From contig CAXXQR010000001.1 of assembly GCA_963677955.2 (NCBI GenBank), positions 5,662,429 through 5,726,428 of the forward strand: DNA of 64,000 nucleotides. The letters run 5' to 3'. Shown here in pieces: positions 9,262 through 49,409 of the stretch. This DNA comes from Prolixibacteraceae bacterium. GTDB lineage: Bacteria; Bacteroidota; Bacteroidia; Bacteroidales; Prolixibacteraceae. Numbering within the stretch: the first letter of the stretch is position 1; each line of letters starts with the position of its first letter. The notes beneath the pieces were generated by a model. The model saw only the letters and a list, made by a program, of their open reading frames with translations. It made no database searches and had not been told where the DNA came from. Position numbers and translations under genes: made by a program.

Positions 9262-9331
9262 TTTAGCCTATGAATATTAGTCACTTATCGTTCCATTTAT
9301 TCTCATAACCTTTAAAATTTTACCGTCACGA

Positions 9332-9364
9332 ATCCCTCCTCTTCGTGGAGGTCCGGAGGGGCTT
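9332..9364. repeat. GC-rich REP-like intergenic element
   Basis: atccctcctcttcgtggaggtccggaggggctt is a self-complementary CCTCC/GGAGG-rich stretch in an otherwise AT-rich spacer between two permease genes. Confidence 0.4.
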
Positions 9365-23193: not shown

Positions 23194-25296
23194 CTATTTC
23201 GTCCAGATGCAACGGTAGTTAAATCGTCTGTTTGGTGCTGTATCGCCATCGGTACACAGCGAAATTGGATCTTTCAGTTCGGCTGCATTATCGCTCCATT
23301 TGAAATCGAACGTAAATTGATTGCCCGATAAACCAAGCAGTTCACGGGGGACCGATATTTCCAGTTTACTTCCTGAGAACCGGTATTTCAAATCAGCAAC
23401 TTCGACCCATGGATTCTCAGGATGAGCAGCATCATAACGCATCAGCGTAGTAGTTTGTCCATCTTTCACTTTCTTGTTGATCAGGTAATCGTAGCCGTAC
23501 CAACCTGTAGCCGGATTATTATCGGCATCAATCAGCAACAACATCCAATTATTATCGGTTGAAGCCGTAAGAGTTGCAACGGTTTCTGCATAAAAGCTGA
23601 TGTTTTGCTTATCGACAGCGACTTTACTTGTAACGATGTCGTTTCGCCCTGAAGTGTTGGTATAGTGCAACCCTCCATAACCGTTGGCATTTCGATGAAA
23701 GGTATCACCCTTTGTGTCACGGTACTCTGTTGAAACCAAATTCCAGTCGTCAAAATTGCCATCTGTTTTAATTTCTGAATAGCCCTTCAATTCAGGAATT
23801 GGACGAATTCCCTTGTATTTTCGGATATTCTGAGCCATCTGCATGTAATAATTGTCGGTATAACCACCTTTCATCGGGCTTACAGTCCGGTTGAACTCCG
23901 AATTGTACTGGTCGACAAAACGGAATGAACTATCTCGTCCAAGCCAAGGTGTTGTTCCTCCATCATCCAGTTGATATTTTCCTGCAGTCCATTCATTCCA
24001 ATCGTTAATATACAGAAATTCGGGGTTTGCAGCGATCGCTTCATCCCATCGCTCCTGGAAATAGATTCCGTAGCCTTCGGGACCTGCAACCGTTTTTCCC
24101 AGCCATGAAACGTAAGTAGGTTCTGGCAGATCGTATTTGTTCAGTTTTGGCTCTCCGTTCTGTCGAGACCACGATTTACCAACGCCCATGTTCTCTTTGG
24201 TCATGGTAACCGGATGCTGTGCCGGAGTAACGGCAGTCTCTTCGCGTTTGCCATTATGTGTTGAAAGTAATTCGTCAGGACTCATAGCTTTCACTTTTGG
24301 TTCGGCCATACTATAACCAAAACTCCAGTTATCTTCAGTGCCGATATAACGTCTGCCAGCCCATTCGTAATAGCCCCACCACATTGTTCGGGGGGTAAAG
24401 AAATTTTTAACTTCTTTGGTATAATCTTTATAAAACTCTTCGGTATAATCCGGATCTCCGTAATGCGGATTATTTTTATCGGTTTTGGCTGATGCATCGA
24501 AATGAGGGTTCGGATTCTCAACACCACTACCATTGGCATCTACCGCAGGATTGCCGTTGTATAATAACAGTGGTTTGCCATCCCAGTAAAACCAAAGGTC
24601 TTTGTACTTTTCCTGTTTGTAAATCCGATCGTACAAATCCTGAACAACTGTAATTACCGGGCCATTGAATGCCCAGAAAACAAATTTCGGGACCTTATTT
24701 CCTTCGGCTTTCATTTTCTGCATGGTGCTGAAAGTAACATCCCATTCGTCCCAATAGCGCACGGCATTGGTCACATCCATCACCAGCACATCAACGCCGG
24801 CATCGGCCAACATCGACATATCTTTTCGGATTACATATTCATCCTGACTCAGGAAATAACCCATTTCAGGCTCGCCCCAGTGGTATGAACCTTCAGTCCA
24901 AAGCGGGTTTTTTGCATCCAACCGTGCATTCGGATCTGCTTTCAGTATTTTTGAAACATCAGCAGAATAAGGACTTTTAAAATTGGTATAATGATCCTGA
25001 GTGTGCCATGTGATGTAAAAAATACCTGCAATGCGGCGTTGGTCGTTTTTTACGGGGCCAACCTCCTGAAAATGGGGCATCATCCGGCCCAGCGCATCAT
25101 TTGCTACCCATGTGTCCGGATAAATGTCTCGATAATAATTTTCGCCTGACGTTGCGAATGAAACTTGAGTGCCGGAATCCTCCGGACTTGTAGATTTTGA
25201 CTTTTTATCTTTCGCAAAACAGGACGAGACCGTCCCCCAAACTAACATCAACAAAACAATCAAAATATGAAAATGAAATAATTTTTGTCGCTTCAT
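23194..25296 (-). CDS. Uncharacterised GH99/GH71-like TIM-barrel glycosidase with C-terminal DOMON/CBM9-like domain (paralog 3; start revised to 25296)
   Basis: MKRQKLFHFHILIVLLML signal; IFYITWH, YHWGEPEMGYF, MLADAGVDVLVMDVTN, LYINDWNEWTAG, FVDQY, TSGRNDIV, GDTAPNRRFNY. Confidence 0.8.
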   Translation of the reverse strand: MKRQKLFHFHILIVLLMLVWGTVSSCFAKDKKSKSTSPEDSGTQVSFATSGENYYRDIYPDTWVANDALGRMMPHFQEVGPVKNDQRRIAGIFYITWHTQDHYTNFKSPYSADVSKILKADPNARLDAKNPLWTEGSYHWGEPEMGYFLSQDEYVIRKDMSMLADAGVDVLVMDVTNAVRYWDEWDVTFSTMQKMKAEGNKVPKFVFWAFNGPVITVVQDLYDRIYKQEKYKDLWFYWDGKPLLLYNGNPAVDANGSGVENPNPHFDASAKTDKNNPHYGDPDYTEEFYKDYTKEVKNFFTPRTMWWGYYEWAGRRYIGTEDNWSFGYSMAEPKVKAMSPDELLSTHNGKREETAVTPAQHPVTMTKENMGVGKSWSRQNGEPKLNKYDLPEPTYVSWLGKTVAGPEGYGIYFQERWDEAIAANPEFLYINDWNEWTAGKYQLDDGGTTPWLGRDSSFRFVDQYNSEFNRTVSPMKGGYTDNYYMQMAQNIRKYKGIRPIPELKGYSEIKTDGNFDDWNLVSTEYRDTKGDTFHRNANGYGGLHYTNTSGRNDIVTSKVAVDKQNISFYAETVATLTASTDNNWMLLLIDADNNPATGWYGYDYLINKKVKDGQTTTLMRYDAAHPENPWVEVADLKYRFSGSKLEISVPRELLGLSGNQFTFDFKWSDNAAELKDPISLCTDGDTAPNRRFNYRCIWTK

Positions 25297-25405
25297 ACTT
25301 TTAAAAGATTTAACTTTATCCAAATCAATAAGGTATGGCAATTTATGTCTAATCTGAAATGCCAGTCTTCTGCTTAATCCTCCTCGTGACAGGATCATCA
25401 CACTA

Positions 25406-25441
25406 CCTTCCCTTTTTACTGAAAGGGGTTTTGGAGTGGTT
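25406..25441. repeat. Degenerate REP-like hairpin in intergenic spacer
   Basis: CCCTTT-TTACTG-AAAGGG flanked by GGAGTGG; similar layout to the element at 9332. Confidence 0.25.
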
Positions 25442-25483
25442 CTATATTTTGAAATTTCCATAATAATTCTGAATAAAACTATA

Positions 25484-28400
25484 TTAATACTGAACACTTG
25501 AAATTCTCACAGGGCCAAACAATCCGGAAGGTTGTAGCGGGCTGTCAGCATTGTAGGTATTAACCGGACACCATGTTTTTCGCTGATCGACCGGCAATTT
25601 GCTGTCGCCAATCAACCTATTGACCCAGGTATTGACCACTTCAATTTTCAGGTCGTTTTCACCAGCTTTGACTAGTTTGGTAATATCAAGCTGGTAAGGC
25701 GCTGTCCATAATCCACCGGCATACGTGCCATTTACTGTGACTTTGGCCATCGCCGTGAAACTGCCCAGATCAATAATTACATTCTTGCCCTCAGGAATTT
25801 GAGCTACATTGAATTTAAAGCTGTAAAAGGCTGTTCCTGAATAGTATTTAATACGGTCATCTGAAGAAGTGGTCCAGTCCTGAAGTGTTTCGAAAACCGC
25901 TGGTTGCTCCGGACCACGTTGCGAAGCATCGAAAGCAACTGTCCACGGGCCTTTCAAATCGGCCAGAAGTGTTGGTTCAGGATAATTGGCATACACGCCT
26001 TTACCGGTAGCAGTAGCAGCCTTTTCGCGAAAAACAACAAATACACTTTCGTATGGAGCCAGTTTCAACGGAACGGCTGTCGTAATTCCGTTTTGCTCGT
26101 AAGCCGGAAGTTTGCGAATCGAACCGGTGGCGGTTTGCCAAAGTTCGGGTTGCAATCCTTTTATCCTGAATTCAGGAGTAACTATCTTGGTTTCTCCGGT
26201 TTGATTGGTCACAAAATACAACTCGCCGTTTTGTGAAGTGCGGTGTCCGTAGTGAATGGAGCGGTCTTCAGGCAATTTACAATCCGGAACACAATTAATC
26301 TGAGCAAAAGCTTCTTTCATGCTCAAACCGTTTATGATTGTTCCTTTACCGAATTTTCGTGATTTTACATTCACACCGTCCACTTCACCCCAAAGTTCTG
26401 TGACCATTTGCTGAACTTCTTGGTCGGCTGTTGGCTGGTTTTGTAAACTGGGAGATCGTTTGGGAGCAGGTCCCAGAATAACCGCACCACCATTAACCAA
26501 CTGTTTGATTTTTGCCAATAATTCAGGACGCATGGTTTCGAGTTTTGGAAGCACCAGAATACGGTATTGGGTTCCGTGAGGTAAAGTGATCAGGCCATCT
26601 TTCACGGTCATGTATTTCTCAATAACCTCGGCATTCATGTAGTCGAATTGATAACCGACAGGAAGAGCAGGATCGGTGATTCCGGTCATTTTCGGCGCAT
26701 CTTCGCCAATAAAATAGGCTACATCAGCAACGTTCAATCCCTGCTGAAGCATATAATTTGTCCGTTTCAGGTATTGGGTATAAACATCCATTTGCGAAAA
26801 CCAGGTGTTTTTCCGGTTAAACTCATTCCCAAACCATGCATTCATACCGGGATTCTTGTCCTCGTAGGGCTGGGTGATGTAAACGTGCAATAATGTATTA
26901 TTGATTCCCTCAGCGAAAAAGCGGTCGCCACGTTGTTTGATCGTTCCGGGGTAACGGCTGAAATGATTGCCAGCACAGGTATTCGATTCGGCTGAGATTT
27001 TTGTTTTGCCATAGATGTGCCCACACGAAGTAGCTGCGCGGTTTTCGATGTTTCCCAAATCGCCTTCGCTCCAGAATTCGCCACCAATTTCGTCGGATTG
27101 TCCGCCGTACATCAGGAATTCGCTCGGGAAGCCCCAGTGTCCGTAACATTCCAGCCATGTATGCAATCCATATTTGTGGCTAATATCGCGCAGACCGCCC
27201 ACATAATCATAAGCAACTTTGTCGGCCACCATGCGGCGCATGTCCCATAAAAAACGATCCGATGACTGTTCGCTGTTCACAACCAGTCCTTTGTACACCG
27301 GTAGGTATGGAACCGGATCATACCCATAACGTTGTTTGAAGTCGGCGATAAAATCGTCAGTGAAGTTCTGACCACCGGTTTCATAACTATCCTGAACCAC
27401 CACTTTAAAGCATTTGCGGTCGGCCACCGGAATGCGTTTCAGGATTTCACCCATGTGCCCTTCAAAATGCATGGCGACATGTTCACGGCTCATTTTGTCG
27501 ACTTCATAACCAGTAGCTTCGGGCGATGCCGGAGCGTTTGTTGTTCCGGTCGGGGTCATTCCGGTACGAAGAATTACCCATTCGCCTTCAGGAACATCCC
27601 AGTTTAGGGTTCCATCGGCAGATAGGTTCTTCGTAATATCAATTACTTTTGATCCATCAATCACCATTGACTGATCTTTTGGTTCGGGCTGCTGCGGCCA
27701 TTGGTATTCGTGCCAGTAAGGAAGAGGAGTTTGGTACATTTTGGCCAGTGTCTTCTCAGCATAGCGTTCAACGCGGGGCGCCGCTGAAAGCTCTACTTCT
27801 GCCAATCCATCGCCCGAATTAATACCTTTTACAAGAACACGGAATGTGGTTGAAGTGACAGCAGGGAAAGATACCACCACCGGAGCATAAGAATCAAAAC
27901 CTACATTTAATGTAGCGTTAAAACGGTTAATCTGGAATTCAGCAACCGTTCTGAATTTTCCGTTGGCTTCCTTTACCTGTAATATCGCCGGGTTATTAAT
28001 TGCCCCTTCTATCGGAGTAACCGACAGGCTCCGGGCAGTAAACGGTGAGTTCGATTCGAAATCGATTGTAAAATCGCCGTTTGCCGGGAAATGAATCCCG
28101 GTATTGCGGTCCCGGTCAACAATCTTCGACAAATCTGAACCCTTGGGAGATGAACTGATTTTTGCGTTGTTGACGTCAAGAATCAGCTGGTCATCTTTGG
28201 GGGTGGGATAAGCGATTACCTTAACATCCTGAAACAATTCTATTGGTTTTTCGAGCTTTTGGCTGAACTTCATCGGACCTTTTACCCGTAATTCTGACGA
28301 AGTCAGGTAGCGCATAGCCGCATCAGCTTTCACCCACGGCCCACCCGACTGGCTCCAGCCCGGCGAGTTGAAAATCCCGATTTCGATGTTCAGTTCAGTA

Positions 28401-28761: not shown

Positions 28762-30576
28762 CTACCTTTCCGAATAAACAAAATTGAAACGTCCGCCAGG
28801 AGCAGTATCTCCATTGACGTAAAAATCCATGATGTTACCGTTTTCCTGCATGTTATCATTCCATTTGAATTCGAGGTTGATCGACTTTCCAACAAGGTTC
28901 AATATGCTTCTCGGGATTTCAAGTTCCAATTTATTGCTGTCAACTGCAAACTTTGAATCGGAAACCTTTTCCCATTCCCAGCGATTGCCAATGTTCTTTT
29001 CCACGATGGCTTTATTCCCTTTGGGGTTTACACGGTTGACAATAAAATCGTAACCATTCCAGCCGGTCGATTTATCGCGGTCGGCATCAATAAAAAGCAT
29101 CATCCAGTTGCGATCGGTCTGTGCAGTAAGGGCATCAGCGGTTTCCACATAGAAATAAACTTTCTCAGCATCACGGGCTACTTTTGCACCCACAATGTCA
29201 TTTCTACCTGTATTATTCTTGTAATATTGGTCGTAACGACCTTCGTGGTCGCGGTGCATGGTGTTTCCTTTGTAGTGTTTGAAGTATGGAGCAACATCAG
29301 CCCAACCATCTGTTTTACCTATTTTGATTGTTTTAGGTGCCGACACCTTTTCCGGAGCCGACATTCCTTTGAATTTCCGAATCTGGTCGGTTAACTGAAG
29401 ATAGTACACATCGCCTCTGTCGCCCCATCCGTTGTTGGGTTCAATGTCGCGGCTGTGTTCCCAGTCGAACTGATCGACAAACGAGAACGGATCGCCGGTC
29501 CAGCCATCTTTGGGTAACCATTGCCCTGCAATGTATTCGTTCCATCCGGTCACAAAAACCAGTTCCGGATCGAGTTCGAATGCACGATCCCATTGCTCCA
29601 TAAAATTCCATCCGTATAAGTAGCCATCCACACGCGGATCGAACCCATTTCGTTTGGTGAAACTGCGACCATAAGATCCGGGCAAGTTGAATGCGCTGCA
29701 ATGTCCTTTGGTTTCGGGACTGGCATTTTGGGCAATACCCACGGTAACCTGCTCAAATTTGCCATCGGAACCTTTCACATAACCATGCTGCGGATAATCT
29801 TCGAGCCATCCCCATTGGTCGTTACGACTTGGTCCGCTCACGTAATCGGGTTGCCCCGGGCGGAAGGTGAAAAAAGCTGCAATCTCCCGATCTTCTGCAG
29901 AATCAGTTAAATTATCGGGATAACCCATGATGCAAGGTTTTCCTTTCCAATAGAACCATAGATTCTTGTAACGGCCAGGTTTATATACATCGCGGTACAA
30001 CTGGCGAAGCGAAACCAGCGCATGAGGCACCGGGCCAAACGGGAGCATGTAGGCAATTTTAGGTGTATTCACACCATCTTTCTGCGCCTGATCCCAAGTT
30101 TTCAACAATGCTTCGTACGATTCTTTCCAGGTAAGGTCGCCATTGGTACAATCAAAAAATACAGCATCGACTCCGGCATCGGCCAGCATTTCGGCATGTT
30201 TACGCAACACCCAGGGATCGGTTGTTTTATAATAACCAAGTAATGGTTGTTCCCAAAAAAAGAATCCCGGTTGTTTATCGCCCCATGCAGGATGATGATA
30301 ATCTTTCATTGCCTCGGGGTATTTCCTGACAATCTCGGTAATGTTTTTTACCTGATAAGTAGTATCATCATTACCCTGATGCCAGGTCCAGTAAAACATG
30401 GCGATGAACTTGTCTTTCTTTTTTTCTCCGGCGTCACGGTATTCGCGCACTTTTCGTCCAAGTGCGTCGGTTACCGCCCACTGGTCGCTATCAACAGGCT
30501 GTGCCATAGATTGACCGAAGCTGAAACAAGCAATTGCTACTACAACAAATGATTCAAATAGAATTTTCTTTTTCAT
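28762..30576 (-). CDS. Uncharacterised GH99/GH71-like glycosidase (paralog 2, minimal form)
   Basis: Signal peptide; MFYWTWH, FFWEQPLLGYY, RKHAEMLADAGVDAVFFDCTN, VFVTGWNEYIAG, FVDQF...SRDIEP, NTGRNDI, GDTAPGGRFNF. Confidence 0.82.
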   Translation of the reverse strand: MKKKILFESFVVVAIACFSFGQSMAQPVDSDQWAVTDALGRKVREYRDAGEKKKDKFIAMFYWTWHQGNDDTTYQVKNITEIVRKYPEAMKDYHHPAWGDKQPGFFFWEQPLLGYYKTTDPWVLRKHAEMLADAGVDAVFFDCTNGDLTWKESYEALLKTWDQAQKDGVNTPKIAYMLPFGPVPHALVSLRQLYRDVYKPGRYKNLWFYWKGKPCIMGYPDNLTDSAEDREIAAFFTFRPGQPDYVSGPSRNDQWGWLEDYPQHGYVKGSDGKFEQVTVGIAQNASPETKGHCSAFNLPGSYGRSFTKRNGFDPRVDGYLYGWNFMEQWDRAFELDPELVFVTGWNEYIAGQWLPKDGWTGDPFSFVDQFDWEHSRDIEPNNGWGDRGDVYYLQLTDQIRKFKGMSAPEKVSAPKTIKIGKTDGWADVAPYFKHYKGNTMHRDHEGRYDQYYKNNTGRNDIVGAKVARDAEKVYFYVETADALTAQTDRNWMMLFIDADRDKSTGWNGYDFIVNRVNPKGNKAIVEKNIGNRWEWEKVSDSKFAVDSNKLELEIPRSILNLVGKSINLEFKWNDNMQENGNIMDFYVNGDTAPGGRFNFVYSER

Positions 30577-33919: not shown

Positions 33920-36079
33920 TTACGGAATTACTTCCGTATAGCGAACATCATCCCATGAGTTAGTTCCTATTATCGATTTGTAAGGCTCAAATACAGCATC
34001 TTCTTGATTGGCGTCGGCTGCCTGATAAGCAAACCACACCGGTTTCCGTCCTCCCGGGTCAGCAGAATCGTCCGGAAAACGGCGTAGACCAATCCGCAAA
34101 CCATCTTCAGCCCTGTTGTCAATCCAGTTGTGCCATTGCACCGCATCTATCCCATCGAGTACTTTCAACTTTTTCCAGGTATAAACAAATCCGGCGGCCT
34201 GCTCTTTCAAATCGGTATCGCTATAGGTTCGCGAATTCGTCCCGTTTTCCGACAGCCAAAGTGTTCGTTTAACAGTGCCTTTGTATTTGTTCTCAGGCTT
34301 CTTTATCCAGGAGTCAAGAACTTCCAGATTTTTAAATGTGATTAATGGAGAATTTGAACTGAATTTAGCATTCTCATCGTTCCATGTTTTAGGTTCAAAC
34401 AGATTCTCCGGATAAGGATGATAAGCCAGTCCCCATTGGAAGTCTCCTTCAGCTTCGCAATAATCGTTTAAAACGTTCAGCATTTTTTTTGTTGCATAAC
34501 ATTTTGCCCCCACTGACGCCGACCAGGAGTGAGTAAACGAGCCAAACACTTCGCTGTTTGCATCATATTTCCGGGCAATGTTGTAGCACAACCTCATCGA
34601 TTTAATGTAAGTGTCGGTGTAAACAAGCATAGGCTTTTCACCCATGTTGGTCCACGAAATTCCTGCATCTACCTCGTTGTGCATAATCCAATGGTGGATA
34701 CGCCCGTAACTGTTATCACTTCGACAATAGCGACTTGCCAGAAAATCGAGCGCTGCGGCATAACAATTTACACTTGCCGGAGTGGTCATATTTGGCATGG
34801 TATAAATGCCTTCAGAAGTATAATTCGGATGTTGAAGTAACTTTCCAATCTCAGGATCGGCACATTGCGATGCCTTCTGAACCAGAATAATGGCCGCTAC
34901 CACAATATTTTTCGACAGGGCCATTTTCATTGTACGATCAAGCTCATCAACTCTGGAATTATCGAAATAATATGTTTTATCGCCATAAGTGTGGGCAATT
35001 GCATTGGAACGCGATTCCAAGTACATAAACTCAGTAAAAGCCACATTTACAGTTACGCTTGAAATATTTAGATCATCCAGATCAGAACCAAATCCGCGGT
35101 TAACAGAATACCCGCCCAATCCCTTCCGGCCAGAAGGTCGTTGTGCAGACATGTTTTGAGTAGATGAAATCTCATCAGCATAACGTGCATGTGAAACAAC
35201 TTCATCAGACAGCGTTCCAATTTTAGCAATCACCCATTTCGATAAAAGCCGATCGTATTTCAATCCTTTACGACTTACAAAACGATCTATATTCATTGAA
35301 AAAGCTGGACTGCTTACCGGAAACTGATCGGAGAATTTACTCATCAGTGTTAGGTCATCGAATGGGGAAATTTCACAAAGGCTATAATTTCCGTCTCCTG
35401 AATAATTCACAGTGATTGTGATCGTTGATACACCTACTTTAACTTCAGTAATATGAGAGCTATAGCTGGATGCAAGGTATTTTTTCAGATTCGATTCAAA
35501 CAGAAGATCTTTTGCGATTAAGTCTTCACGCTCCTTTGCCAAAGCTTCTTCAGCAGTAGTTCTGGCTCTCATCTGCATACTTTTGATCTGAATAACTACG
35601 CTCGTTTGATTTCCAAAATCGAGACGAAAAAAATTACCTACGTTTCCCCATACGAAACTTTTAATGTATTCGCCTAAATCGATGGAAAAAGTTTTCCAAG
35701 AACTTGTGGCAGAGATTGTTTCTGTTTTAACTGAACGATCCTCGCTTACTGGTGCAGCAAAGAAAATCTGTAAACTGGCAATATCTTTTGTACTTTGATA
35801 ATCAAATGTAAAAACAACTTTTTCGGAGGGATTTGTAACACTCAGCGGCAAAAGTGAAACATAAGGATCTTCACCAGTGGTCGTCAACTCATACTGATTA
35901 GAACCTTTCGATGTTACCTGAAGTTGATTCGCTGTGGAGGATTGAAAACTCATATAACTATTAACCGTTACCGAAGGTAGCTGATTCGCTGGTTCGTCCT
36001 TGCATGACAAAAAAGAGAATCCAATCGTCAGAAAAAACGATAAAATGGAAACTTTGTATTTGATATATCTATACTTCAT
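33920..36079 (-). CDS. DUF5722-like lipoprotein: N-terminal beta-sandwich module plus clan GH-A-like TIM barrel
   Basis: Lipobox FLSC followed by KDE; HHWIMHNEVD (acid/base NE), LAYHPYP, LWLSENG (nucleophile E), WHNWIDN. Confidence 0.75.
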   Translation of the reverse strand: MKYRYIKYKVSILSFFLTIGFSFLSCKDEPANQLPSVTVNSYMSFQSSTANQLQVTSKGSNQYELTTTGEDPYVSLLPLSVTNPSEKVVFTFDYQSTKDIASLQIFFAAPVSEDRSVKTETISATSSWKTFSIDLGEYIKSFVWGNVGNFFRLDFGNQTSVVIQIKSMQMRARTTAEEALAKEREDLIAKDLLFESNLKKYLASSYSSHITEVKVGVSTITITVNYSGDGNYSLCEISPFDDLTLMSKFSDQFPVSSPAFSMNIDRFVSRKGLKYDRLLSKWVIAKIGTLSDEVVSHARYADEISSTQNMSAQRPSGRKGLGGYSVNRGFGSDLDDLNISSVTVNVAFTEFMYLESRSNAIAHTYGDKTYYFDNSRVDELDRTMKMALSKNIVVAAIILVQKASQCADPEIGKLLQHPNYTSEGIYTMPNMTTPASVNCYAAALDFLASRYCRSDNSYGRIHHWIMHNEVDAGISWTNMGEKPMLVYTDTYIKSMRLCYNIARKYDANSEVFGSFTHSWSASVGAKCYATKKMLNVLNDYCEAEGDFQWGLAYHPYPENLFEPKTWNDENAKFSSNSPLITFKNLEVLDSWIKKPENKYKGTVKRTLWLSENGTNSRTYSDTDLKEQAAGFVYTWKKLKVLDGIDAVQWHNWIDNRAEDGLRIGLRRFPDDSADPGGRKPVWFAYQAADANQEDAVFEPYKSIIGTNSWDDVRYTEVIP

Positions 36080-40792: not shown

Positions 40793-42493
40793 TTAAAAAC
40801 CAACCAGGCACCATCTGGTTTTCCAGCGTCCCCAGTCCGTACCATACGCATAAGAAATATATTGCTGCACCCTTGATTTAATATGTCCCAATCCATCGCC
40901 ACTCCAACCGCAGTTATGCAAGTAGGGTTCCAGATTTGAACGTATTTCACCAATTTTGCTAAACTTCAAGCCATCATCGGATTGCCAAACAATAATATAA
41001 CTTGATGCCGACATACGGGATGCCGTATGAATAGCCTGAAATTTATTTATGTCCTCGCGGTATTTTACATCACAATGATCAGATCCGGAAATAGAACTTT
41101 TATTGATCGCTGTTCCCCGGAATGTCAAAGCTCCTGGCCAGTTCGGATTGTTTGCGTCAGCAGTGGAAACACGGGTAGTTGTAGCGGCTTCGCCACTGCC
41201 ATCATTCCATGAATAATAAAAATATACAACATCATTAACTACTACGAAAGAAGGTTCGCCAGCGCCAAAAGAACTATGATTACCTGTAAACTCAATTACA
41301 GGTTCGGGATTCCCTCCCCATCCGTTTCCATTCCATTTTTCCCATGGTCCATCAGGATATTTCGAACGACAAACATAAACATCATTGTCTACCATATTTG
41401 CGTCTTCAGTTGTTGTGTAGCCCAAATAGTAATATCCACCCCAACTTGCAACGCCCGGATCGCAGACAGAAAATGCATCTCTGCTGTATTCAGTAGGCTT
41501 CAGCACCATTTTTTCATCTGTCCATTTTACACCATTGTCATACGATCTCTGATAGGAAGCCTGATCCCAAAAAGTTGCGCCGGTGGTTTTATCGAGAGTA
41601 TATTTTGCCTGAAAGTTGTAGTCGACCTTAAATCCGTTATAATAGCTGGTTACTCCGGAAATATCACCTGTATTAGTCCAAGCTCCGGAATATGTTGTCA
41701 GTCCATTCTTTAATTCCCATAAATATGTTCCTGCCGGAAATTTTTCATCGTTTGAAACTCCAATGTAGGAGTTATCTCCATAATCAACGAAAGTTGCCGT
41801 TGCAACCGGGCTCGCTGCAACTGTGGTTGCATAGTCAGTACTCCACTGGTACAAATAAAATGTAAAACCACAATGTTGTCCGCTCCAGTTCGGACAACAA
41901 ACACTAATTTTCCAGAACGGTACCTCGGAAGTAAATTTCTGAGCGGCAACATTACTTCCTAAGCTAATGGCCGTCTGACCGGTATCTCCAAAGAGTGATA
42001 TATCATTTCCAAAAGTTCCTCCCGAGGCTGCAAACCAGGCATCCACAGAGCCGTCGTCGTTGATAATAATTGAAGACCCGTAACGGTAATTCTCTCCAGT
42101 ATAAATATCCCAGCTACTTGTAATAGTTGGAAGCAAGGACCTGCCCGATTGTTTAACCGTTAACTTTTTTGTTTCGCCACCGGAAGAAATACTGATCTTC
42201 ATTTCTCTCCCCGAGGCTAGCATATTCTCTGTCAGGATAAAAGTAAAACTGAAAACTCCAGATGAACCATTCTGTACGGGCAAAGTACACCAGCTTTCTT
42301 CATCTTCAGCATATTCTGCTTTTGCACTCCAACTGTCACCCGCCGAAACACTTACGCTACCTATACCTCCAACAGCGGACAAGGTAACATTCGTTTTATC
42401 CAAGGCAAAAGTATATTGAGCATCATCGCTTTTGCACTGTAGAAATAAAAGACTCAGTAAAAGACATCCATAAATCCTAAGATAGTTATTCAT
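40793..42493 (-). CDS. Surface lipoprotein: BACON domain plus GH43-like five-bladed propeller with inserted module
   Basis: Lipobox FLQC followed by KSDD; BACON motifs (W..L...G...EN....R...I.I....VKQ); YRYGSSII, VCDPGV, GAGEPSFV propeller acids. Confidence 0.75.
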   Translation of the reverse strand: MNNYLRIYGCLLLSLLFLQCKSDDAQYTFALDKTNVTLSAVGGIGSVSVSAGDSWSAKAEYAEDEESWCTLPVQNGSSGVFSFTFILTENMLASGREMKISISSGGETKKLTVKQSGRSLLPTITSSWDIYTGENYRYGSSIIINDDGSVDAWFAASGGTFGNDISLFGDTGQTAISLGSNVAAQKFTSEVPFWKISVCCPNWSGQHCGFTFYLYQWSTDYATTVAASPVATATFVDYGDNSYIGVSNDEKFPAGTYLWELKNGLTTYSGAWTNTGDISGVTSYYNGFKVDYNFQAKYTLDKTTGATFWDQASYQRSYDNGVKWTDEKMVLKPTEYSRDAFSVCDPGVASWGGYYYLGYTTTEDANMVDNDVYVCRSKYPDGPWEKWNGNGWGGNPEPVIEFTGNHSSFGAGEPSFVVVNDVVYFYYSWNDGSGEAATTTRVSTADANNPNWPGALTFRGTAINKSSISGSDHCDVKYREDINKFQAIHTASRMSASSYIIVWQSDDGLKFSKIGEIRSNLEPYLHNCGWSGDGLGHIKSRVQQYISYAYGTDWGRWKTRWCLVGF

Positions 42494-42518
42494 AATCTTC
42501 CATTTTCAAATATTTAAA

Positions 42519-44477
42519 CTAGCGCATCCATCCGCATGATTTATTGTTTACTCTATACTTAGCCTTGGGAAACCATGTACAAATGTGTTTGCCATTCCAG
42601 TTATTTACCGAGGCATAATCGACCATCCTGATAAAGCCGCTCTCAACAGGAACCCTGAACTGCATTTTTGCTCCTGAAGCCGACGGATCCTCTTGGACTA
42701 TGTTAACATATCTGTCATTTGAAACCACAAAAATCGGTTCATTATATTGTTCATCCATATTTTCATCGCGGGCCAAAACGACCGGACCACGCACCAGCGC
42801 CTGAAAATTGTCTCCCGCCCTATTGCTTCCGAGCGGTGCATCAACAATCCGGCAACGCATATCCAGTTGCAATTCAATCTTATCTCCGGAATTCCACTTC
42901 CGGTTTAGCACAGCATAAGTTCCCCTTTTTGCCTCAACAGATTCACCGTTTACTTTTAATACCGTTGATTCACTCCATGATGGAATTCGTAATCTGACGG
43001 TGAATTTTTCTGAAGATTCAGGAAAAACTTTTATAACCACACTACCGGAAAGTGGGTAATCTGTTTCTATTTCAAGGTTTACTGGATTCCTTTTAGCTGT
43101 TGTTGCCGTGGCAGTTCCTGCATTATATAGGTTTATAACGGGACCCGAATCAGAATTCATAACTGCAACGAACGGCAAATAAGACAACCCCATCGGGCCA
43201 TTCAGATTACAGCAAGTTACATAAACACTGTCGATCATTCCGCCCCAGCCTACCGTATTCGTTTTTACTCCATTCAATAAGTTGACGTAACTAAATCCAT
43301 CGCCCTCGGGCTTCATCGCTCCAATTAATCCATTGTAAGTGTATTTTTCAATCATGTCCATAGCAAGCGGATCTCCGGTCAAGCGCATAATCTGACTGCA
43401 TAACTTCAGCCAGGTCACACCGACACAGGTTTCCATCATTCGTTGAATATCTGGATTCGTTTGTTCGAGCGCAGTGTTGTCCCATCCTTCACCCATCACA
43501 GCAGGATGGTAAGGCAGGTCGCCGCCACCGTTGCCGATAATCGTAATTTCCTTTTCTATAATATTGTGATATAGGTTCATAACAGACTGCTTCCATTTAT
43601 CGTTGCCCGTAACCCTGTAATATTCGACCAAACCTTCAAATAGCGACATCATCTCATAGGCTTTAGGATAAACTCCACCGATTTGCTCCGGAGCTTTGTT
43701 GTTGAATGCATCTTCAATAATATTGAAGCCTTTGGCACCGCCTTCAACTTCGACAATGTATTTTGCAAAATCAAGGTATCTCTGATATCCTGTCAGTTTA
43801 TACAATCGCATAATTGGTTCCAGAATGGTACTCGATTCAATGTGATTTGGGCTCCATCCCTGATCAACGATAGAAACCTTGGGAGATGAACCTATTTGAG
43901 ATAAAACACAATCGGCATGTTTTATCATTGCTGCCAGCACCAAAGGGCTTTGTTCTACCTGTTGATAGTACTGTTCAAGTCCTAACAAAACATATTTTCT
44001 TTCCCATAGATCGCCTCCAGAGCCGTCTGGTTGATTCTTAACTGGAGAACAACTGATAGATCCATTTTCTCGCTGCGTTGTCAGTAAGTCGGCAACTGTA
44101 GCCTGTAGTATTTTTTTCAGCTCTGGATCCTGCGTATAACGATAAAACATACATCCAGAGCGGACAGCCTTCCCCCACATTTCTCCTTGTGCAAAAAAAG
44201 ATCTGCCAGACCTGAATTTTTCAACCAACGCTGCATAAGGCACAGCTCCTTTGTTCCAATGGTTGATTGAATTCTGAATATAACCTTCCAGAAAACCTTC
44301 GAGATGAATTGAATTTGCAGGAAGCGGCGTAAACTTATCCTGAATATTTACTCTTTTTGTTGTATGGCATGAACCTAAAAAAAGGAATCCAAGCAATATC
44401 ACCAATTTCGTTTGATTACTGAAATTGTTTGTTTCTCTAAAGACTTTTCTAAATAAACTCATATAAATTCCTGTCAA
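42519..44477 (-). CDS. GH127/GH146-family (beta-L-arabinofuranosidase-like) lipoprotein
   Basis: GEMWGKAV, KAYEMMS, GEGW, METCVGVTW and TCCN (Glu/Cys Zn-site pattern), LRIPSW, RGPVV. Confidence 0.85.
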   Translation of the reverse strand: MTGIYMSLFRKVFRETNNFSNQTKLVILLGFLFLGSCHTTKRVNIQDKFTPLPANSIHLEGFLEGYIQNSINHWNKGAVPYAALVEKFRSGRSFFAQGEMWGKAVRSGCMFYRYTQDPELKKILQATVADLLTTQRENGSISCSPVKNQPDGSGGDLWERKYVLLGLEQYYQQVEQSPLVLAAMIKHADCVLSQIGSSPKVSIVDQGWSPNHIESSTILEPIMRLYKLTGYQRYLDFAKYIVEVEGGAKGFNIIEDAFNNKAPEQIGGVYPKAYEMMSLFEGLVEYYRVTGNDKWKQSVMNLYHNIIEKEITIIGNGGGDLPYHPAVMGEGWDNTALEQTNPDIQRMMETCVGVTWLKLCSQIMRLTGDPLAMDMIEKYTYNGLIGAMKPEGDGFSYVNLLNGVKTNTVGWGGMIDSVYVTCCNLNGPMGLSYLPFVAVMNSDSGPVINLYNAGTATATTAKRNPVNLEIETDYPLSGSVVIKVFPESSEKFTVRLRIPSWSESTVLKVNGESVEAKRGTYAVLNRKWNSGDKIELQLDMRCRIVDAPLGSNRAGDNFQALVRGPVVLARDENMDEQYNEPIFVVSNDRYVNIVQEDPSASGAKMQFRVPVESGFIRMVDYASVNNWNGKHICTWFPKAKYRVNNKSCGWMR

Positions 44478-44508
44478 ATTTCATTCTTTTAAACTGATAA
44501 TTAGAAAC

Positions 44509-47013
44509 TCAATTCACAATGAATTTTTTCCTTTCTCTTTTACCTTTATTGCTTAATTCGACAATATATATTCCCTTGTTTCTAAGAAATTCAAGGTTGA
44601 TCCGATTGGCTTCCATCATACTTGTCAATTGCTTCTCCCACAGCAATTTTCCCAAACTATTATAAATACTAAGTTTTGAACCGCTTGGTGCTCCAACATA
44701 GAAAACCACATTCAAGATATCATTTGTTGGATTGGGATAAATCCGAAATGTGGATTCCGCGTGTGCTAATAAGTTAGTTGTTCCGCCAATAAAAAAATGA
44801 TAATTAAATCGGCCTGACGGAGCCACATCGCCGTTAACATAAAAGTCCATGATATCACCATCGACCTGCATGTTGTCGCTCCATTTAAATTCAAAATTTA
44901 ACAACCGATCATCTGCGATGCCAAGTTTTGAACGCTTAATCTTGAACACTAAAGTTTCCCCGTCAACAAAATATTGAGCTGCACCTACTTTGTTCCAGTC
45001 CCAACTGTTGTAACTCGTTTCAATACTTACTGAATCCGTAGGACTGTTTCGGTTGATTACAAAGTCATAACCTTCCCATCCGGTATCTTTATTACGATCG
45101 ATGTCAATGAACAAACGCATCCATTTCGGATCCGATTTATCAGTCAATGCAGTAGCTGCCTCAACGTAGAAATATATGTATTCTTCATCTCTGGCAACTT
45201 TAGCTTTGATAATATCGTTTCGTCCGGTGTTGTTGGTATAGATAAGTTGAGTTCCTTGTCCGGCGTGGTTCCTGTGAATGATATTTCCTTTATAAGAAAA
45301 GTATTCTGGCGTTACATCATTCCATGAATTGCGATCATTCAATGCAATAGTTTTTGAAGCTGATGCTGCAACTTCATTGTCCATTCCTTTATATTTCCGG
45401 ATATTACTTATTAGTTGCATGTAATAAACATCTCCTTTGTTTCCCCACGATTTAACGGGTTCAATGTCTCTGCTTTTTTCAGCCAAATATTCATCAACGA
45501 AAGCAAACGGTTTCACATTCCAGTCGAACCAACGCCCGGTGATCCATTCGTTCCAACCGGTAACAAAAATCAGATCAGGATTAAGTTGAAAGGCGCGTCC
45601 CCATTGTTCCTGAAAATTCAAACCATACAAATATGCATCAGCACGTGAATCCTGGCCATTCGCTTTGGTGTAGCTACGTCCGTAGGTTAGTGGACTGTTA
45701 AAACCACTGGCATGTCCACCGCTGGCATCCGATGCATTCTGAGCTACACCAACAGCAACCTGTTCGTAGCCTCCGGTTATTTTAGAAACATATCCATGTT
45801 GCGGGTAATTTTCCAACCATCCCCATTGTTCGTTGGTTGATGACCCATTCACGTAATCGGGCTGGCCCGGACGGAAAGTAAAAAAGGCCTTTACAGCATC
45901 AACTTTTTGCTGATCAATCATGGCAAGAATCTGGACAGGAGTGTGATCATTCCCTCTTGTTAGTTTCGTAAAAGTTAAACCTGAATTATATGCTATTTCG
46001 CTTTCGTAATTACCGTTTAACTGTGTCGAGTTGAAATAGCTAACCGGGGTTCCGTTGGCTTCTGTATACTTCCATACACCCACCATTTCTGTTCCATTAC
46101 TAAGTTCCCAGAGGTAAGTTCCAGCATCTTTTTTTTCGAAAGTAAGGGCGAGTTTTTCGTTGTCGGAGAAATTCTCGAAGGTTTTTTCGGCAAGAACTGT
46201 TCCGGAAACAGTTTCGTTGTAATTATTTTTCCATTTATATAATCTGAAAGTGAGATTTCCGATGTTGTTGCCCCAACTAGGACAAGTTGCAGTAATCCCA
46301 TAAAAAGGACTTGTTGCAGTAAATTTTAAGCCAGCACTGTTTCGTTTAACGACCATACTGTTGGGGTAAGCCATAATCAACGGTTTGCCATTCCAGTTAA
46401 ACCACAAATCTTCATACAATCGGGGCTTGTAAAGTTCGTCGTACAACTCGGTCAACGATTCCATTGATCCTTCTGTAGCACCAAAAGGTAAAAGAAATGC
46501 AACTTGCGGAGTTTGAACTCCATCTTTACGGGCTTGACTCCAAACTTCCAATAGCTTAGTGTAAGATGTTTTCCAGGTCAGGTTTCCATTGGTACAATCA
46601 AAAAAAACGACATCAACACCCGCATCAGCCAGCATTTCGGCATGTTTACGCAGAACCCATTCGTCTGTAGTGCGATAATAGCCAAACAAGGGTTCGTCCC
46701 ACCAGAAAACGCCACCGGTTATGCCTTGCCAAGCAGGATGCTCTGCATTAGTTTCTGCATCAGGATATTGCTGTAAAATTTGAGTAATGTTTAGTACGGG
46801 AGAAAACGATGCATTGGCATCGGTATGCCAGGTCCAGTAAAACATTCCAACCAGCTTATCTTTGCGAGAACCGCCTGCTTCTTCAAAAGTGGGCAGTTTT
46901 CGGCCAAGAGCGTCGGTGGCAGGTAGTCCGTTCCCGTAATTACCGGCGACTTGAGCGAATAGTTCTGAAATACAAAAAAAGGCAAATAGAATAACTGAAG
47001 ATAGTTTTTTCAC
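44509..47013 (-). CDS. GH99/GH71-like glycosidase (paralog 1) with inserted module and T9SS C-terminal sorting domain; GTG start
   Basis: MFYWTWH, RKHAEMLADAGVDVVFFDCTN, TGWNEWITG, SRDIEP; C-terminal IYPNPTND...IYNSLGK...GIYIV...KKFIVN. Confidence 0.85.
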   Translation of the reverse strand: MKKLSSVILFAFFCISELFAQVAGNYGNGLPATDALGRKLPTFEEAGGSRKDKLVGMFYWTWHTDANASFSPVLNITQILQQYPDAETNAEHPAWQGITGGVFWWDEPLFGYYRTTDEWVLRKHAEMLADAGVDVVFFDCTNGNLTWKTSYTKLLEVWSQARKDGVQTPQVAFLLPFGATEGSMESLTELYDELYKPRLYEDLWFNWNGKPLIMAYPNSMVVKRNSAGLKFTATSPFYGITATCPSWGNNIGNLTFRLYKWKNNYNETVSGTVLAEKTFENFSDNEKLALTFEKKDAGTYLWELSNGTEMVGVWKYTEANGTPVSYFNSTQLNGNYESEIAYNSGLTFTKLTRGNDHTPVQILAMIDQQKVDAVKAFFTFRPGQPDYVNGSSTNEQWGWLENYPQHGYVSKITGGYEQVAVGVAQNASDASGGHASGFNSPLTYGRSYTKANGQDSRADAYLYGLNFQEQWGRAFQLNPDLIFVTGWNEWITGRWFDWNVKPFAFVDEYLAEKSRDIEPVKSWGNKGDVYYMQLISNIRKYKGMDNEVAASASKTIALNDRNSWNDVTPEYFSYKGNIIHRNHAGQGTQLIYTNNTGRNDIIKAKVARDEEYIYFYVEAATALTDKSDPKWMRLFIDIDRNKDTGWEGYDFVINRNSPTDSVSIETSYNSWDWNKVGAAQYFVDGETLVFKIKRSKLGIADDRLLNFEFKWSDNMQVDGDIMDFYVNGDVAPSGRFNYHFFIGGTTNLLAHAESTFRIYPNPTNDILNVVFYVGAPSGSKLSIYNSLGKLLWEKQLTSMMEANRINLEFLRNKGIYIVELSNKGKRERKKFIVN

Positions 47014-47210: not shown

Positions 47211-49409
47211 CTACCAACCAAGGTTCTGCCAATTGACTCCTGAAAGACCAATAATCTTGTCAACTTCATTCTGATCAATCGGGTACATTAGATATTTATC
47301 GGAAGAGCAGTTCCTGTCTCTAATTTTGAATCTATTATATGTCAAGGTTGATCCTTGTTTAGTGATTCTCATTCCGGTAACAAACTTATCTGTTTCGCTC
47401 AAAATTTTCCAGCGACGCACATCAAAGAAGCGATGCTCTTCAAAAGCCAACTCAATACGGCGTTCGTTCCGATATCTCTTTTCGAAGGCTTCCTTGGTCA
47501 TACCAGTCGGCAAAGCCGGCATTCCAACTCTTGCGCGAATTGCATTAACTGCACCTCTGGCACTCATTGAAAAGCTTCCTGAAGTAATGGTAGCATCAGG
47601 TCCATCTGATTGATAAGCTGATTCTGCAAAGTTCAAATAAAATTCGGCCAGACGGAACAATCGTACAGCACCATCAGCATCGTTACTTTGTCCTGATTTG
47701 AAATTATTGAATTTGCGTAAATAATATCCAGTGCGGGTATGTTTACGGTTAAGATCTGAAATCTCTTCATTTCCGCCAACATAAGTCTGGACTGCTGAGG
47801 CATCGACCTCACCTGAAGTAGAAGTTTTTACCTCAATCCGTATATTCTTAATCTGCATAGTAACTCCAGAGTTAACACCCACGTCAAAACGAAGATTATC
47901 TCCAGCATTTCCCCAACCGAACGAGGCAACATTGCTTGTGATATCAATAGAATAGGTACTCCATTCAGTTGATTTCGGAATAACAACTGGGTGAATCGAA
48001 TTGGCTTCTGAGAGTGCCGGGCCAAAAAAGATTTGAGGACTGACCTCTGCAGAACTTTTATACTCGAAAGCAAAAATAACAGAAGGAGGATTGTTCAAAC
48101 CTTCAGTTAGCGCTGAGAGCATTACATTTGGATCACCTCCGGTAGTCGTCAAATCGTAAGTCCCATTAGCCTCGGTCACATCAAGTTGATTGACAGCTCC
48201 GGTAAGGGTCAGATTATAGGTATCGTCACGATCATCAACAACCTTACCCAAATTCCGTGTTGCGCCGTTGTAATATATGGATGCGTAAAATCTTGGATCT
48301 CTTCCTTCGTAAGGTTTTGCAGGATCATAACCTGAAGTGTTGTTTACGATTGGATTCAACCGACTTGCATCTGAGTAACCAGTGATTGGTATTTCGCCAT
48401 TCTCCATTTCATAACTATCAACTAGCTCCTGCGTCGGACATGGACCTGCTTTTTCCATTCCCGGATTTGTTGGCAAACCAGCATATTTCCATATCTGCAT
48501 CTGATTACCGCGCTGATAAATCGTTTCTTTATCTACCGATCGTTGATCGTTGGAACTGGTAAAGAAATAAAGAGCATAAGTATTTTGGGCAATCGTGTTG
48601 TCAGGAATTACATCAAACAATTTGTAATCGTTTGCTAAACATTGAGCCAAAGCTTCCTTGTTTATTGCAGTTGCATCTGACCATGTGTAGGTGCCGTCTG
48701 ACCATAGTGGGCTAGCAGCATAAGTAATGGCTTCCGATTTAATTGCATAAGCTACCGCGCGGCTCATAATGCCGAACTGGTTGTCATAGATAGCCCAATG
48801 AAACCCATCTTCAGTATTCGGAACAGCCAACGCAGCATCGCAATCAGCCATGATGAATGTAACTACTTCAGAAAACTTAGCCCGGGAATCTTTAGAAAAA
48901 TCGTAACCCACTTCGATTGGTTTATCAAAAATAGGTACCCCGCCATAACGTTTTATCAATTGAAGATAGTAAAGTGCACGCAGAGTACGGGCTTGTGCAA
49001 CCCATCCGGCTTTTATTTCTTCGGTAGCATATACAGTAGCTGTCTTCATGTTTTCGATAAAGACATTACATTTCCGAATTCCTTCATAAAGACTTCCCCA
49101 TGGACTACCGTCTGATGAATAGGCTGGATATGTTGTAGAGGTAATACTTCCGGCATACCACAAGCTGTATCTCGAACCAGAAGTTATATCGTCCGCGTCC
49201 TGCGCTTCGTCCGTAAATGAGGAACGATCCATGTAAGGTGCTGGACAGTATCCGTAGCAAGAATTTAGATAACCTTTAGTCCGGTTCAGGTCACTGAAAA
49301 CCTCATCCATCGTTATGCGGCCATCGCTGGGCAAATCCAACTGTTTGTTACACGAAAATAGGAAGCCCGATAAAATTATAGCAAATAAAATATTAATATA
49401 TTTTTTCAT
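47211..49409 (-). CDS. susD: SusD/RagB lipoprotein (SusD2) with a 130-aa inserted module
   Basis: Lipobox LFSC; EARTLRALYY-type motif LIKRYGGVPI, RDPRFYASIYYNG, RLAEFYLNFAE, RNERRIELAFEEHRFFDVRRW. Confidence 0.95.
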   Translation of the reverse strand: MKKYINILFAIILSGFLFSCNKQLDLPSDGRITMDEVFSDLNRTKGYLNSCYGYCPAPYMDRSSFTDEAQDADDITSGSRYSLWYAGSITSTTYPAYSSDGSPWGSLYEGIRKCNVFIENMKTATVYATEEIKAGWVAQARTLRALYYLQLIKRYGGVPIFDKPIEVGYDFSKDSRAKFSEVVTFIMADCDAALAVPNTEDGFHWAIYDNQFGIMSRAVAYAIKSEAITYAASPLWSDGTYTWSDATAINKEALAQCLANDYKLFDVIPDNTIAQNTYALYFFTSSNDQRSVDKETIYQRGNQMQIWKYAGLPTNPGMEKAGPCPTQELVDSYEMENGEIPITGYSDASRLNPIVNNTSGYDPAKPYEGRDPRFYASIYYNGATRNLGKVVDDRDDTYNLTLTGAVNQLDVTEANGTYDLTTTGGDPNVMLSALTEGLNNPPSVIFAFEYKSSAEVSPQIFFGPALSEANSIHPVVIPKSTEWSTYSIDITSNVASFGWGNAGDNLRFDVGVNSGVTMQIKNIRIEVKTSTSGEVDASAVQTYVGGNEEISDLNRKHTRTGYYLRKFNNFKSGQSNDADGAVRLFRLAEFYLNFAESAYQSDGPDATITSGSFSMSARGAVNAIRARVGMPALPTGMTKEAFEKRYRNERRIELAFEEHRFFDVRRWKILSETDKFVTGMRITKQGSTLTYNRFKIRDRNCSSDKYLMYPIDQNEVDKIIGLSGVNWQNLGW

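Follow-up and report, generated by a model that had tools for sequence, protein, structure and literature searches.

Why should two sugar-degrading enzymes with unrelated folds, encoded in a single gene cluster, carry the same domain, and what might that domain do? The question arose in the window, the whole 64,000-nucleotide stretch of DNA that was analysed here, where a sequence-only reading had proposed that an aromatic-rich and possibly undescribed carbohydrate-binding module was grafted onto two enzymes predicted to lie outside the cell. We found that the two enzymes have in common one beta-sandwich domain of about 125–140 residues, here called module B, and that it is, with near certainty, a real, shared, mobile and unannotated domain.

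One domain in two unrelated enzymes

Both stretches singled out in the earlier reading were found where it had placed them, on the minus strand, with 45988-46335 encoding aa 227-342 of P0001 and 41600-41947 encoding aa 183-298 of P0002. The two enzymes, their domains and the P0001 paralogs are as follows.

44509..47013, minus strand: P0001, a secreted enzyme of 834 aa made up of a signal peptide, a GH99-like (beta/alpha)8 catalytic region into which module B is inserted, a beta-sandwich region at the C-terminal side and a T9SS sorting domain
44512..44742, minus strand: T9SS type A C-terminal sorting domain, P0001 aa 758-834 (PF18962, E 1.8e-12; TIGR04183, E 4.9e-14)
45922..46350, minus strand: module B copy 1 (P0001 aa 222-364), the strand-permuted form of the beta-sandwich, its strand HTPVQI being C-terminal
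40793..42493, minus strand: P0002, a predicted surface lipoprotein of 566 aa (lipobox Cys20, then KSDD) that combines a BACON domain with a GH117/GH43/GH130-like beta-propeller, the latter containing module B
42149..42310, minus strand: BACON domain, P0002 aa 62-115 (PF13004, E 7.4e-8)
41570..41986, minus strand: module B copy 2, P0002 about aa 170-308, canonical in form, its extra strand TAISL being N-terminal
28762..30576, minus strand: P0003, a 604-aa paralog sharing 52-56% identity with P0001, which lacks both module B and a T9SS domain and has an empty insertion site
23194..25497, minus strand: a 767-aa third paralog in the P0001/P0003 family, more divergent (31% identity to P0003) and likewise lacking module B

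Comparison of P0001 aa 226-347 with P0002 aa 183-308 by BLASTP gave 36% identity over 126 columns (78.6 bits, E 2e-22), a significant alignment that bears out the claim of one domain inside two unrelated enzymes, and a six-frame search of the whole genome located exactly two copies, those in P0001 and P0002. There is practically no chance that this similarity is compositional, accidental or an artefact of ORF calling. In addition to the pairwise E value, a profile built from the module retrieves hundreds of clusters, its fold is predicted with confidence, and both ORFs are conserved over their full length in other genomes; no point in favour of an artefact was found, and we regard that reading as refuted. 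The discrete, aromatic-rich character of the domain was confirmed as well, as were the export signals of its hosts, namely a T9SS type A cargo domain in P0001 (47.8 bits for PF18962 and 52.1 bits for TIGR04183) and the lipoprotein cysteine followed by KSDD in P0002.

The alignment of P0001 with P0003 breaks at aa 221/365 of the former and aa 224/223 of the latter, leaving P0001 aa 222-364 as a clean insertion at a site where P0003 has the loop YPDNLTDSAEDREIAAFF alone, just as the sequence had suggested. The exported paralog carries the module, and P0003, without the T9SS domain, does not. In the full-length model of P0001 the module lies between a barrel strand (aa 210-214) and a helix (aa 368-377), and this order of secondary structure elements would put it on the barrel's catalytic face, within a beta-to-alpha loop. 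The relation of the barrel itself to GH99 is weak, and is one of fold-level similarity only. A Foldseek search with full-length P0001 was dominated by Ig-like matches to the T9SS domain, and GH99 alone was informative on the catalytic part, where the best match was 4ad0 (E 5e-4, probability 1.0, about 20% identity over about 170 columns). The catalytic part had no Pfam match at E<=0.1, including PF16317 and PF14307, and in the search with the P0001 family profile it matched no PDB chain. GH99/WbsX-like barrels (4ad0; PF16317, PF14307) and P0001 have in common the motifs PLxGYY...D..V......GVDVxxFD and WNEW; however, hhalign of the P0001 family against a neighbouring WbsX/GH99-like family gives a probability of just 8%, and the link to GH99 therefore stays weak. 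P0001 carries NEWIT in place of the GH99 motif NEWHE, so that the second Glu is not conserved.

In P0002 the module is flanked by propeller segments rich in invariant residues, Y136-R137-Y138-G139...W153 on one side and W309-D310 onward on the other. The propeller family profile matched 5ta7 (E 3.6e-8) over about 130 residues, aligned only downstream of the module, and the Pfam GH130 match of P0002 was sub-threshold (21.5 bits against a cut-off of 26). Module B was present in every one of the 120 propeller-family homologs retrieved, and no module-less propeller paralog was found in the bacterium's own genome. Because the module is constant in this family, it is not a recent graft there; the idea of grafting holds for the P0001 lineage, while in the propeller family the module is a standard part. 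Such constancy would equally fit an integral structural or catalytic role.

The copies in P0001 and P0002 are not duplicates of one another, since the former is SusD-like and permuted and the latter canonical. Relative to the propeller version, the version found in P0001 and in SusD proteins has one strand shifted from the N- to the C-terminus, and copies within the SusD proteins of other organisms, which have the same strand-permuted form, match that of P0001 at 60-65% identity.

Fold, family and the SusD loop

Modelled alone with AF2, module B forms a 12-strand beta-sandwich (pLDDT 88, pTM 0.84), and the same fold recurs in the full-length P0001 model; the module is thus a contiguous sequence with a discrete predicted fold, as CAZy asks of a CBM. 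No Pfam-A or NCBIfam model matched it above cut-off in P0001, P0002, 10 + 55 full-length relatives or 45 diverse instances, and the sole Pfam matches on the module were sub-threshold ones to CBM64 (19-21 bits against a cut-off of 25) in two or three proteins. Among PDB sequences, module B profile A1 had 0 matches at E<=10 and the broad profile A6 had spurious matches only (E>=0.003); whether queried with the single sequence or with narrow and broad profiles, Pfam, NCBIfam and PDB sequences yielded no usable match. Foldseek against PDB and BFVD returned generic jelly-rolls with TM<0.5, the best fold neighbours being CBM6, PHR and the CE20 ancillary domain (TM 0.35-0.45); even these closest neighbours to known folds were weak, and none was significant (all E>0.007, TM<=0.45). 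Literature searches on DUF5722, GH99-like PULs and SusD proteins with inserted domains did not find a description of the module. The "putative CBM" of the GH183 paper is the C-terminal domain of EndoMA1, and not module B. The earlier description of the module as possibly undescribed stands with respect to Pfam-A, NCBIfam and PDB sequences; beside it must be set the prospect of a family already listed in CAZy, which we weigh below. Only W46, G83, Y85 and G114 are near-invariant across the family, and as they have the look of core residues they do not mark out a conserved ligand site.

The family comprises 689 clusters at 50% identity (E<=1e-3), or 366 at E<=1e-10, in Bacteroidota, Calditrichota, Ignavibacteriota, Chloroflexota, Kiritimatiellota and Firmicutes. 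Copies are single, terminal or in tandem (2-9) in secreted proteins of several phyla, including Gram-positive SLH, dockerin and secreted proteins; N-terminal copies follow signal peptides, and there are also single-module lipoproteins of about 220 aa. Among cultured bacteria, Gaoshiqia hydrogeniformans Z1-71 has genes that bear the module, and a protein with both propeller and module is encoded by Paenibacillus sacheonensis DSM 23054. Module B is not special to the locus in the window and forms a widespread mobile family, and 0/300 evenly drawn Bacteroidota genomes carry it. Its partners are GH20, GH116, PL11, CBM6, CBM35, PA14, F5/8C, dockerin, SLH, the T9SS CTD and SusD, which are typical of CBM-bearing proteins, and relatives of P0001 of 1200 aa have CBM6 domains alongside it. 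CAZy further expects a CBM to occur within carbohydrate-active enzymes or glycan-binding proteins, and GH99-like, propeller, GH20, GH116, PL11 and SusD hosts were all found.

The SusD-family protein of the window has, in the corresponding loop, a different insertion, here called module A.

47211..49409, minus strand: SusD-family protein P0089, 732 aa, in which the loop after 'DPRFYASIYYNGATRNLG' holds module A, at the exact site of module B in orthologs
47775..48227, minus strand: module A in P0089, about aa 395-545, with homology to the N-terminal part of the DUF5722 protein
35555..35941, minus strand: the module A copy carried by the DUF5722 protein, at aa 47-175 of ORF 33920-36079

Across 122 orthologs of P0089 this loop is empty in 72, holds module B in 13, inserted between DQPxG and KKVETF, and holds the unrelated module A in 37, including P0089 itself. 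Module A occurs there in one or two copies, and the copy in P0089 is 39% identical to that in the DUF5722 protein (E 4e-22); module A had no PDB or Pfam match. Homology between modules A and B was ruled out (hhalign probability 0.1%). The orthologs with module B are genuine SusD proteins (PF07980, PF14322) and adjoin SusC. In a syntenic PUL, L003, module B is present in the SusD protein, and the 835-aa T9SS enzyme and 490-aa propeller belong to module-bearing families, as assigned by family and not by direct scan. A SusD/RagB glycan-binding lipoprotein with an inserted beta-sandwich domain was not found in the literature searched.

Proposed carbohydrate binding and its alternatives

From its context, we favour with moderate confidence a role for module B in non-catalytic carbohydrate binding, as a new CBM-like family. 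This reading is preferred because of the insertion relative to the paralog, the stand-alone fold, the mobility of the module, its CBM-typical partners, its insertion in SusD and its weak carbohydrate-binding jelly-roll neighbours. Module B is an autonomous, mobile accessory beta-sandwich from a large family that the libraries searched do not annotate, and its chain ends are near enough to each other to permit splicing into the surface loops of scaffolds that are not related. Three such scaffolds were seen, namely the GH99-like barrel in P0001, where the module would occupy a beta-to-alpha loop at the catalytic face, the GH117/GH43-like propeller in P0002, where it occupies an early loop, and, in other organisms, the SusD glycan-binding lipoprotein, where it occupies a hairpin loop; terminal and tandem modules occur as well. 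In the window it may hold the cell-surface and secreted parts of a rhamnose/arabinofuranose-type PUL on the polymer before import.

It is conceivable that module B is instead an integral sub-domain of the host enzymes, extending or capping the active-site cleft and determining substrate specificity, like domain B of GH13. Its presence in all propeller-family homologs is consistent with such a role, as is its predicted position on the catalytic face of the P0001 barrel. However, the module is also found in SusD proteins, which are not enzymes, and in tandem arrays, it is the sole recognisable domain of small lipoproteins, and P0003 keeps every family-invariant residue despite having no module, which together make an integral role unlikely. 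A function in protein-protein contact, or as a spacer, could assemble a surface "utilisome" of SusC/D, the lipoprotein enzyme and the T9SS-anchored enzyme with no glycan binding at all. That would suit a module found on the surface components of one PUL, and would suit L003, with its module-bearing SusD and its T9SS enzyme and propeller from module-bearing families; spacer roles are on record for beta-sandwich domains of PULs, for example DUF1735 (PMC11216935). Yet the Gram-positive SLH, dockerin and secreted proteins and the tandem arrays occur where SusC/D is absent, and the other occupant of the SusD loop is the unrelated module A, which fits interchangeable ligand specificity better than conserved docking. 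We therefore consider a contact or spacer role very unlikely.

The function could also be as we propose and yet not new, if module B belongs to a CBM family that is in CAZy but not in Pfam or PDB, such as CBM112 or one numbered above about CBM100. CBM112, described in 2026 as an internal beta-mannan-binding module of Bacteroides GH26 with no deposited structure, is a comparable case, a beta-sandwich set into a surface GH from PULs of Bacteroidales (PMC13357471). Against this, the 82 proteins in which CBM112 has been reported are chiefly GH26, GH5, CE7 and SGBPs from beta-mannan PULs (PMC13357471), whereas GH26, GH5 and CE7 were seen in 0/65 of the long module-B proteins scanned, and the module B family is far larger, spans several phyla and was absent from the 300 evenly drawn Bacteroidota genomes. 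Identity with a listed family is accordingly improbable in our estimation.

There is also a broader idea, which we offer tentatively as a possibility. Modules A and B may be interchangeable "specificity cassettes", swapped in one SusD hairpin loop and in PUL surface enzymes, and domain shuffling of this kind could retarget a conserved SusC/D transporter together with its enzymes to a new glycan; the permuted module B would then be the trace of excision from a tandem array. If binding is confirmed, module B would represent a new large CBM family of at least several hundred 50%-identity clusters in six phyla, would improve the annotation of many secreted proteins now called "hypothetical", and would add to the few documented CBMs spliced within catalytic domains. 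Both host enzymes are uncharacterised, one belonging to the GH99-like family with three paralogs in the PUL and the other to the propeller family, which makes the locus a good starting place for discovery of the target glycan.

Comparison with known modules

The best fold neighbours of module B are jelly-rolls of the CBM6, CBM36 and galactose-binding-domain-like type (1uxx, 1gmm, 1w0n), which are all-beta sandwiches of similar size. The likeness is at the level of fold only (TM 0.33-0.42, E 0.03-0.25), and module B does not fall within CBM6, with no PF03422 match and with E 0.035-0.059 and TM 0.35-0.42 for 1uxx/1gmm. The ancillary domain of CE20 (7tok, 9ega; PMC12313940) resembles module B as a beta-sandwich in a catalytic-domain loop of Bacteroidota carbohydrate-active enzymes, but it differs in host fold, that of an SGNH hydrolase, scores a TM of about 0.3 and shows no similarity in sequence.

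A parallel in architecture is CBM112, whose reference is the internal module of BcWH2_GH26/BuGH26. The two differ in context, since CBM112 has GH26, GH5 and CE7 hosts in beta-mannan PULs and the relatives of module B have none of these, and CBM112 is a small gut-restricted family not reported inside SusD, unlike module B (PMC13357471). Both are nevertheless beta-sandwiches that stem from sequence of unknown function and interrupt the catalytic domain of a PUL enzyme at the cell surface. Like module B, CBM112 also occurs terminally, in repeats and on surface glycan-binding proteins, and it is proposed to act within the outer-membrane utilisome (PMC13357471).

Two hosts with export signals in one polysaccharide utilisation locus

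The minus strand of the window carries a Bacteroidota polysaccharide utilisation locus (PUL), whose regulation and import genes comprise an ECF sigma factor, an anti-sigma factor and two SusC/SusD pairs. The enzyme order begins with P0001 (a secreted GH99-like enzyme), GH127, P0002 (a propeller protein, predicted to be a lipoprotein), a 654-aa protein and a metallo-beta-lactamase-fold protein, followed by a protein whose pectate-lyase-like Pfam match is weak and sub-threshold. It runs thereafter through a DUF5722 protein, a 548-aa protein, a PKD protein and P0003 (a P0001 paralog), and ends with GH106, a third P0001 paralog and a GH78-like rhamnosidase. The nearest named homologs are from Prolixibacteraceae, Gaoshiqia and Paludibacter MAGs. 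Neither the 654-aa protein (38711-40675, -) nor the 548-aa protein (32229-33875, -) has a Pfam match; the former has its counterpart, of 655 aa, at the equivalent position in L003, a syntenic PUL of another genome. The ORFs 31753-32352 and 32229-33875, both on the minus strand, overlap by ~124 nt, perhaps through a miscalled start codon or a frameshift. Five MacB/FtsX-type permease paralogs (~690-800 aa, mutual identity 26-34%) lie in a row at 1-11767 (-).

P0001 and P0002 have in common a beta-sandwich domain of ~130 residues, module B.

Module B, its hosts and the P0001 family
44509-47013, -, P0001 (834 aa), P0001 family
45988-46335, -, module B stretch in P0001, encoding aa 227-342
40793-42493, -, P0002 (566 aa)
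41600-41947, -, module B stretch in P0002, encoding aa 183-298
28762-30576, -, P0003 (604 aa), P0001 family
23194-25497, -, third paralog of the P0001 family

The sequence-only reading had proposed that both ORFs contain the same domain, placed in P0001 where P0003 has a short loop. The P0001 segment matches P0002 at E 2e-22 (BLASTP; 78.6 bits, 36% identity over 126 columns), and P0001 and P0003 are 52-56% identical on either side of a break at which P0001 aa 222-364 has no counterpart, P0003 having only that loop. On the coordinates, the BLASTP match and the break, the observation is confirmed; the first propeller blade is the proposed site of the module in P0002. A six-frame search of the 6.5-Mb genome found module B in P0001 and P0002 only. 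P0001 has a T9SS type A sorting domain at its C-terminal end; at its N-terminal end P0002 has a lipoprotein signal (Cys20, then KSDD) and next a BACON domain; P0003 has neither the T9SS domain nor module B. Surface or periplasmic localisations are predicted from these sequence features.

The further suggestion that the module had been grafted onto both enzymes holds for the P0001 lineage, in which it is an insertion that two paralogs in the same PUL do not have, but not for the propeller family. There, 120 of 120 retrieved homologs (45-95% identity, several bacterial families) align straight through module B, one relative (P0216) has two tandem copies at the site, and the window's own genome holds no propeller paralog without it.

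Host enzymes and the fold of module B

The two hosts do have unrelated catalytic folds, as had been claimed. For the catalytic part of the P0001 family, searches of Pfam, NCBIfam and PDB sequences gave no relative, even when a family profile was used. In the full-length AF2 model of P0001 (pLDDT 82), strands and helices alternate as in a (beta/alpha)8 barrel, and the sole informative Foldseek match is the GH99 endo-alpha-mannosidase 4ad0 (E 5e-4, ~20% identity, ~170 columns). "GH99-like" is a fold-level statement, since hhalign of the family with a WbsX/GH99-like neighbour from a syntenic PUL gave a 34-column motif match only. In L003, an extra 392-aa WbsX/GH99-like gene (PF14307; 7556-8734) lies between the SusD and T9SS enzyme genes; the window has none at the corresponding position. 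The P0001 family, which may be a new glycoside hydrolase family, has among its invariant residues D139, N142, E417, N488-E489 (the 'WNEW' motif), D507 and R515. The profile of the P0002 family matches 5ta7 at E 3.6e-8, only downstream of module B; this entry, labelled only 'Glycoside Hydrolase' in the PDB, we take to be a GH117 enzyme. P0002 also has a sub-threshold match to Pfam GH130.

Modelled alone (AF2, 15-sequence alignment), module B forms a 12-strand beta-sandwich (pLDDT 88, pTM 0.84). Pfam and NCBIfam searches of P0001, P0002, 65 full-length relatives and 45 diverse isolated instances yielded no model that covers it, the sole signal being sub-threshold CBM64 matches in two or three proteins. 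Neither narrow nor broad profiles found a PDB chain, and Foldseek found no significant PDB fold neighbour, the best being jelly-rolls at TM 0.35-0.45 (CBM6, CBM36, PHR domains and a CE20 ancillary domain). Matches in BFVD were weak; most were phage proteins of uncharacterised function, and several of these contain collagen-like repeats. Only W46, G83, Y85 and G114 are (nearly) invariant across the family, and they name no conserved ligand site. The earlier description of the module as possibly undescribed is borne out across Pfam, NCBIfam and PDB sequences. Module B is a real, significant, so far unannotated domain family.

Distribution, the SusD loop and strand order

Searched with a module B profile, 1.84 billion representative proteins yielded 689 clusters with E<=1e-3, of which 366 reach E<=1e-10. 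The module occurs in tandem arrays of 2-9 copies, directly after signal peptides at the N-termini of long proteins, at C-termini, and singly in small lipoproteins of ~220 aa. Its partners include T9SS CTD, F5/8 type C, CBM6, CBM35, PA14, GH20, GH116, PL11 rhamnogalacturonan lyase, dockerin, SLH and SusD. Named carriers belong to Bacteroidota, Calditrichota, Melioribacteraceae, Anaerolinea, Kiritimatiellales, Paenibacillus, Clostridia and Lachnospiraceae, and within Bacteroidota the module is thinly spread, with no carrier in 300 evenly drawn genomes and 5 carriers among 61 relatives, the window's genome included. In Paenibacillus sacheonensis DSM 23054, a Gram-positive propeller-plus-module protein (L055 3725-6700) also has fn3 and three F5/8 type C domains. 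A Wzy_C (O-antigen ligase-like) gene precedes its gene by a few positions, a hint that the context is one of exopolysaccharide.

A region search returned SusD-family proteins with a module B 60-65% identical to the P0001 copy, and these are orthologs of the window's SusD (47211-49409). The SusD loop is uninterrupted ('...RNLDQPAGKKVETF...', ~589 aa) in 72 of 122 orthologs, holds module B at exactly this site in 13, and holds another insert of ~150 aa, module A, in 37, the window's SusD among them; in one ortholog (P0362, 873 aa) module A stands twice in tandem.

Module A copies in the window (~130-150 aa)
47775-48227, -, window's SusD, aa 403-530
35555-35941, -, N-terminal region of the DUF5722 protein, aa 47-175

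These two are 39% identical (E 4e-22), with no match in Pfam or PDB. A relationship between modules A and B was rejected on comparison. In L003 the SusD bears module B, and the 835-aa T9SS enzyme and 490-aa propeller belong to the module-bearing families. The literature searched held no report of a SusD with an inserted beta-sandwich module.

In the propeller family and most module B members, the core 'AGxKF...' is preceded by a strand 'G-T-x-x-P-V-Q-I', which the P0001 and SusD forms have after the core instead ('...GNDHTPVQILA'). Among 122 propeller-family proteins, an HMM of the C-terminal tails of the P0001 and SusD forms matched the sequence flanking the module upstream in 79 and downstream in only 12, every downstream score being negative. 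Where copies stand in tandem, the C-terminal strand of the profile extends into the beginning of the following copy. We infer from these sequence comparisons that the two forms may differ by a one-strand circular permutation, as would be expected of an inserted form excised from a tandem array with an offset of one strand.

Role of module B and comparison with known systems

Module B has a stand-alone fold and exclusively extracellular or surface-associated hosts, and it accompanies CAZymes and known CBMs. It is inserted in SusD, which itself serves to bind glycans, and is present on the exported paralog P0001 and absent from P0003, the paralog without an export tag. Taken together, these observations make a non-catalytic carbohydrate-binding role the best explanation, with moderate confidence, ahead of a structural or catalytic sub-domain of the hosts and of a protein-docking or spacer domain. 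In the P0001 model, module B lies between barrel strand 210-214 and helix 368-377, and so is modelled in a beta-to-alpha loop on the catalytic face, where it could lengthen the substrate cleft.

Were module B a carbohydrate-binding module, it might still belong to a CBM family listed only in CAZy. The 'putative CBM' described for GH183 EndoMA1 (PMC10509167) was rejected as a candidate: it is a domain at the C-terminus of another protein. In concept, module B comes nearest to CBM112 (2026), which binds beta-mannan from within Bacteroides GH26 and is present on SGBPs as well (PMC13357471); CBM112 has a different context, and identity of the two is unlikely. Module B is most likely a new CBM-like family, and its more unusual aspects are the SusD cassette pattern and the proposed strand permutation.
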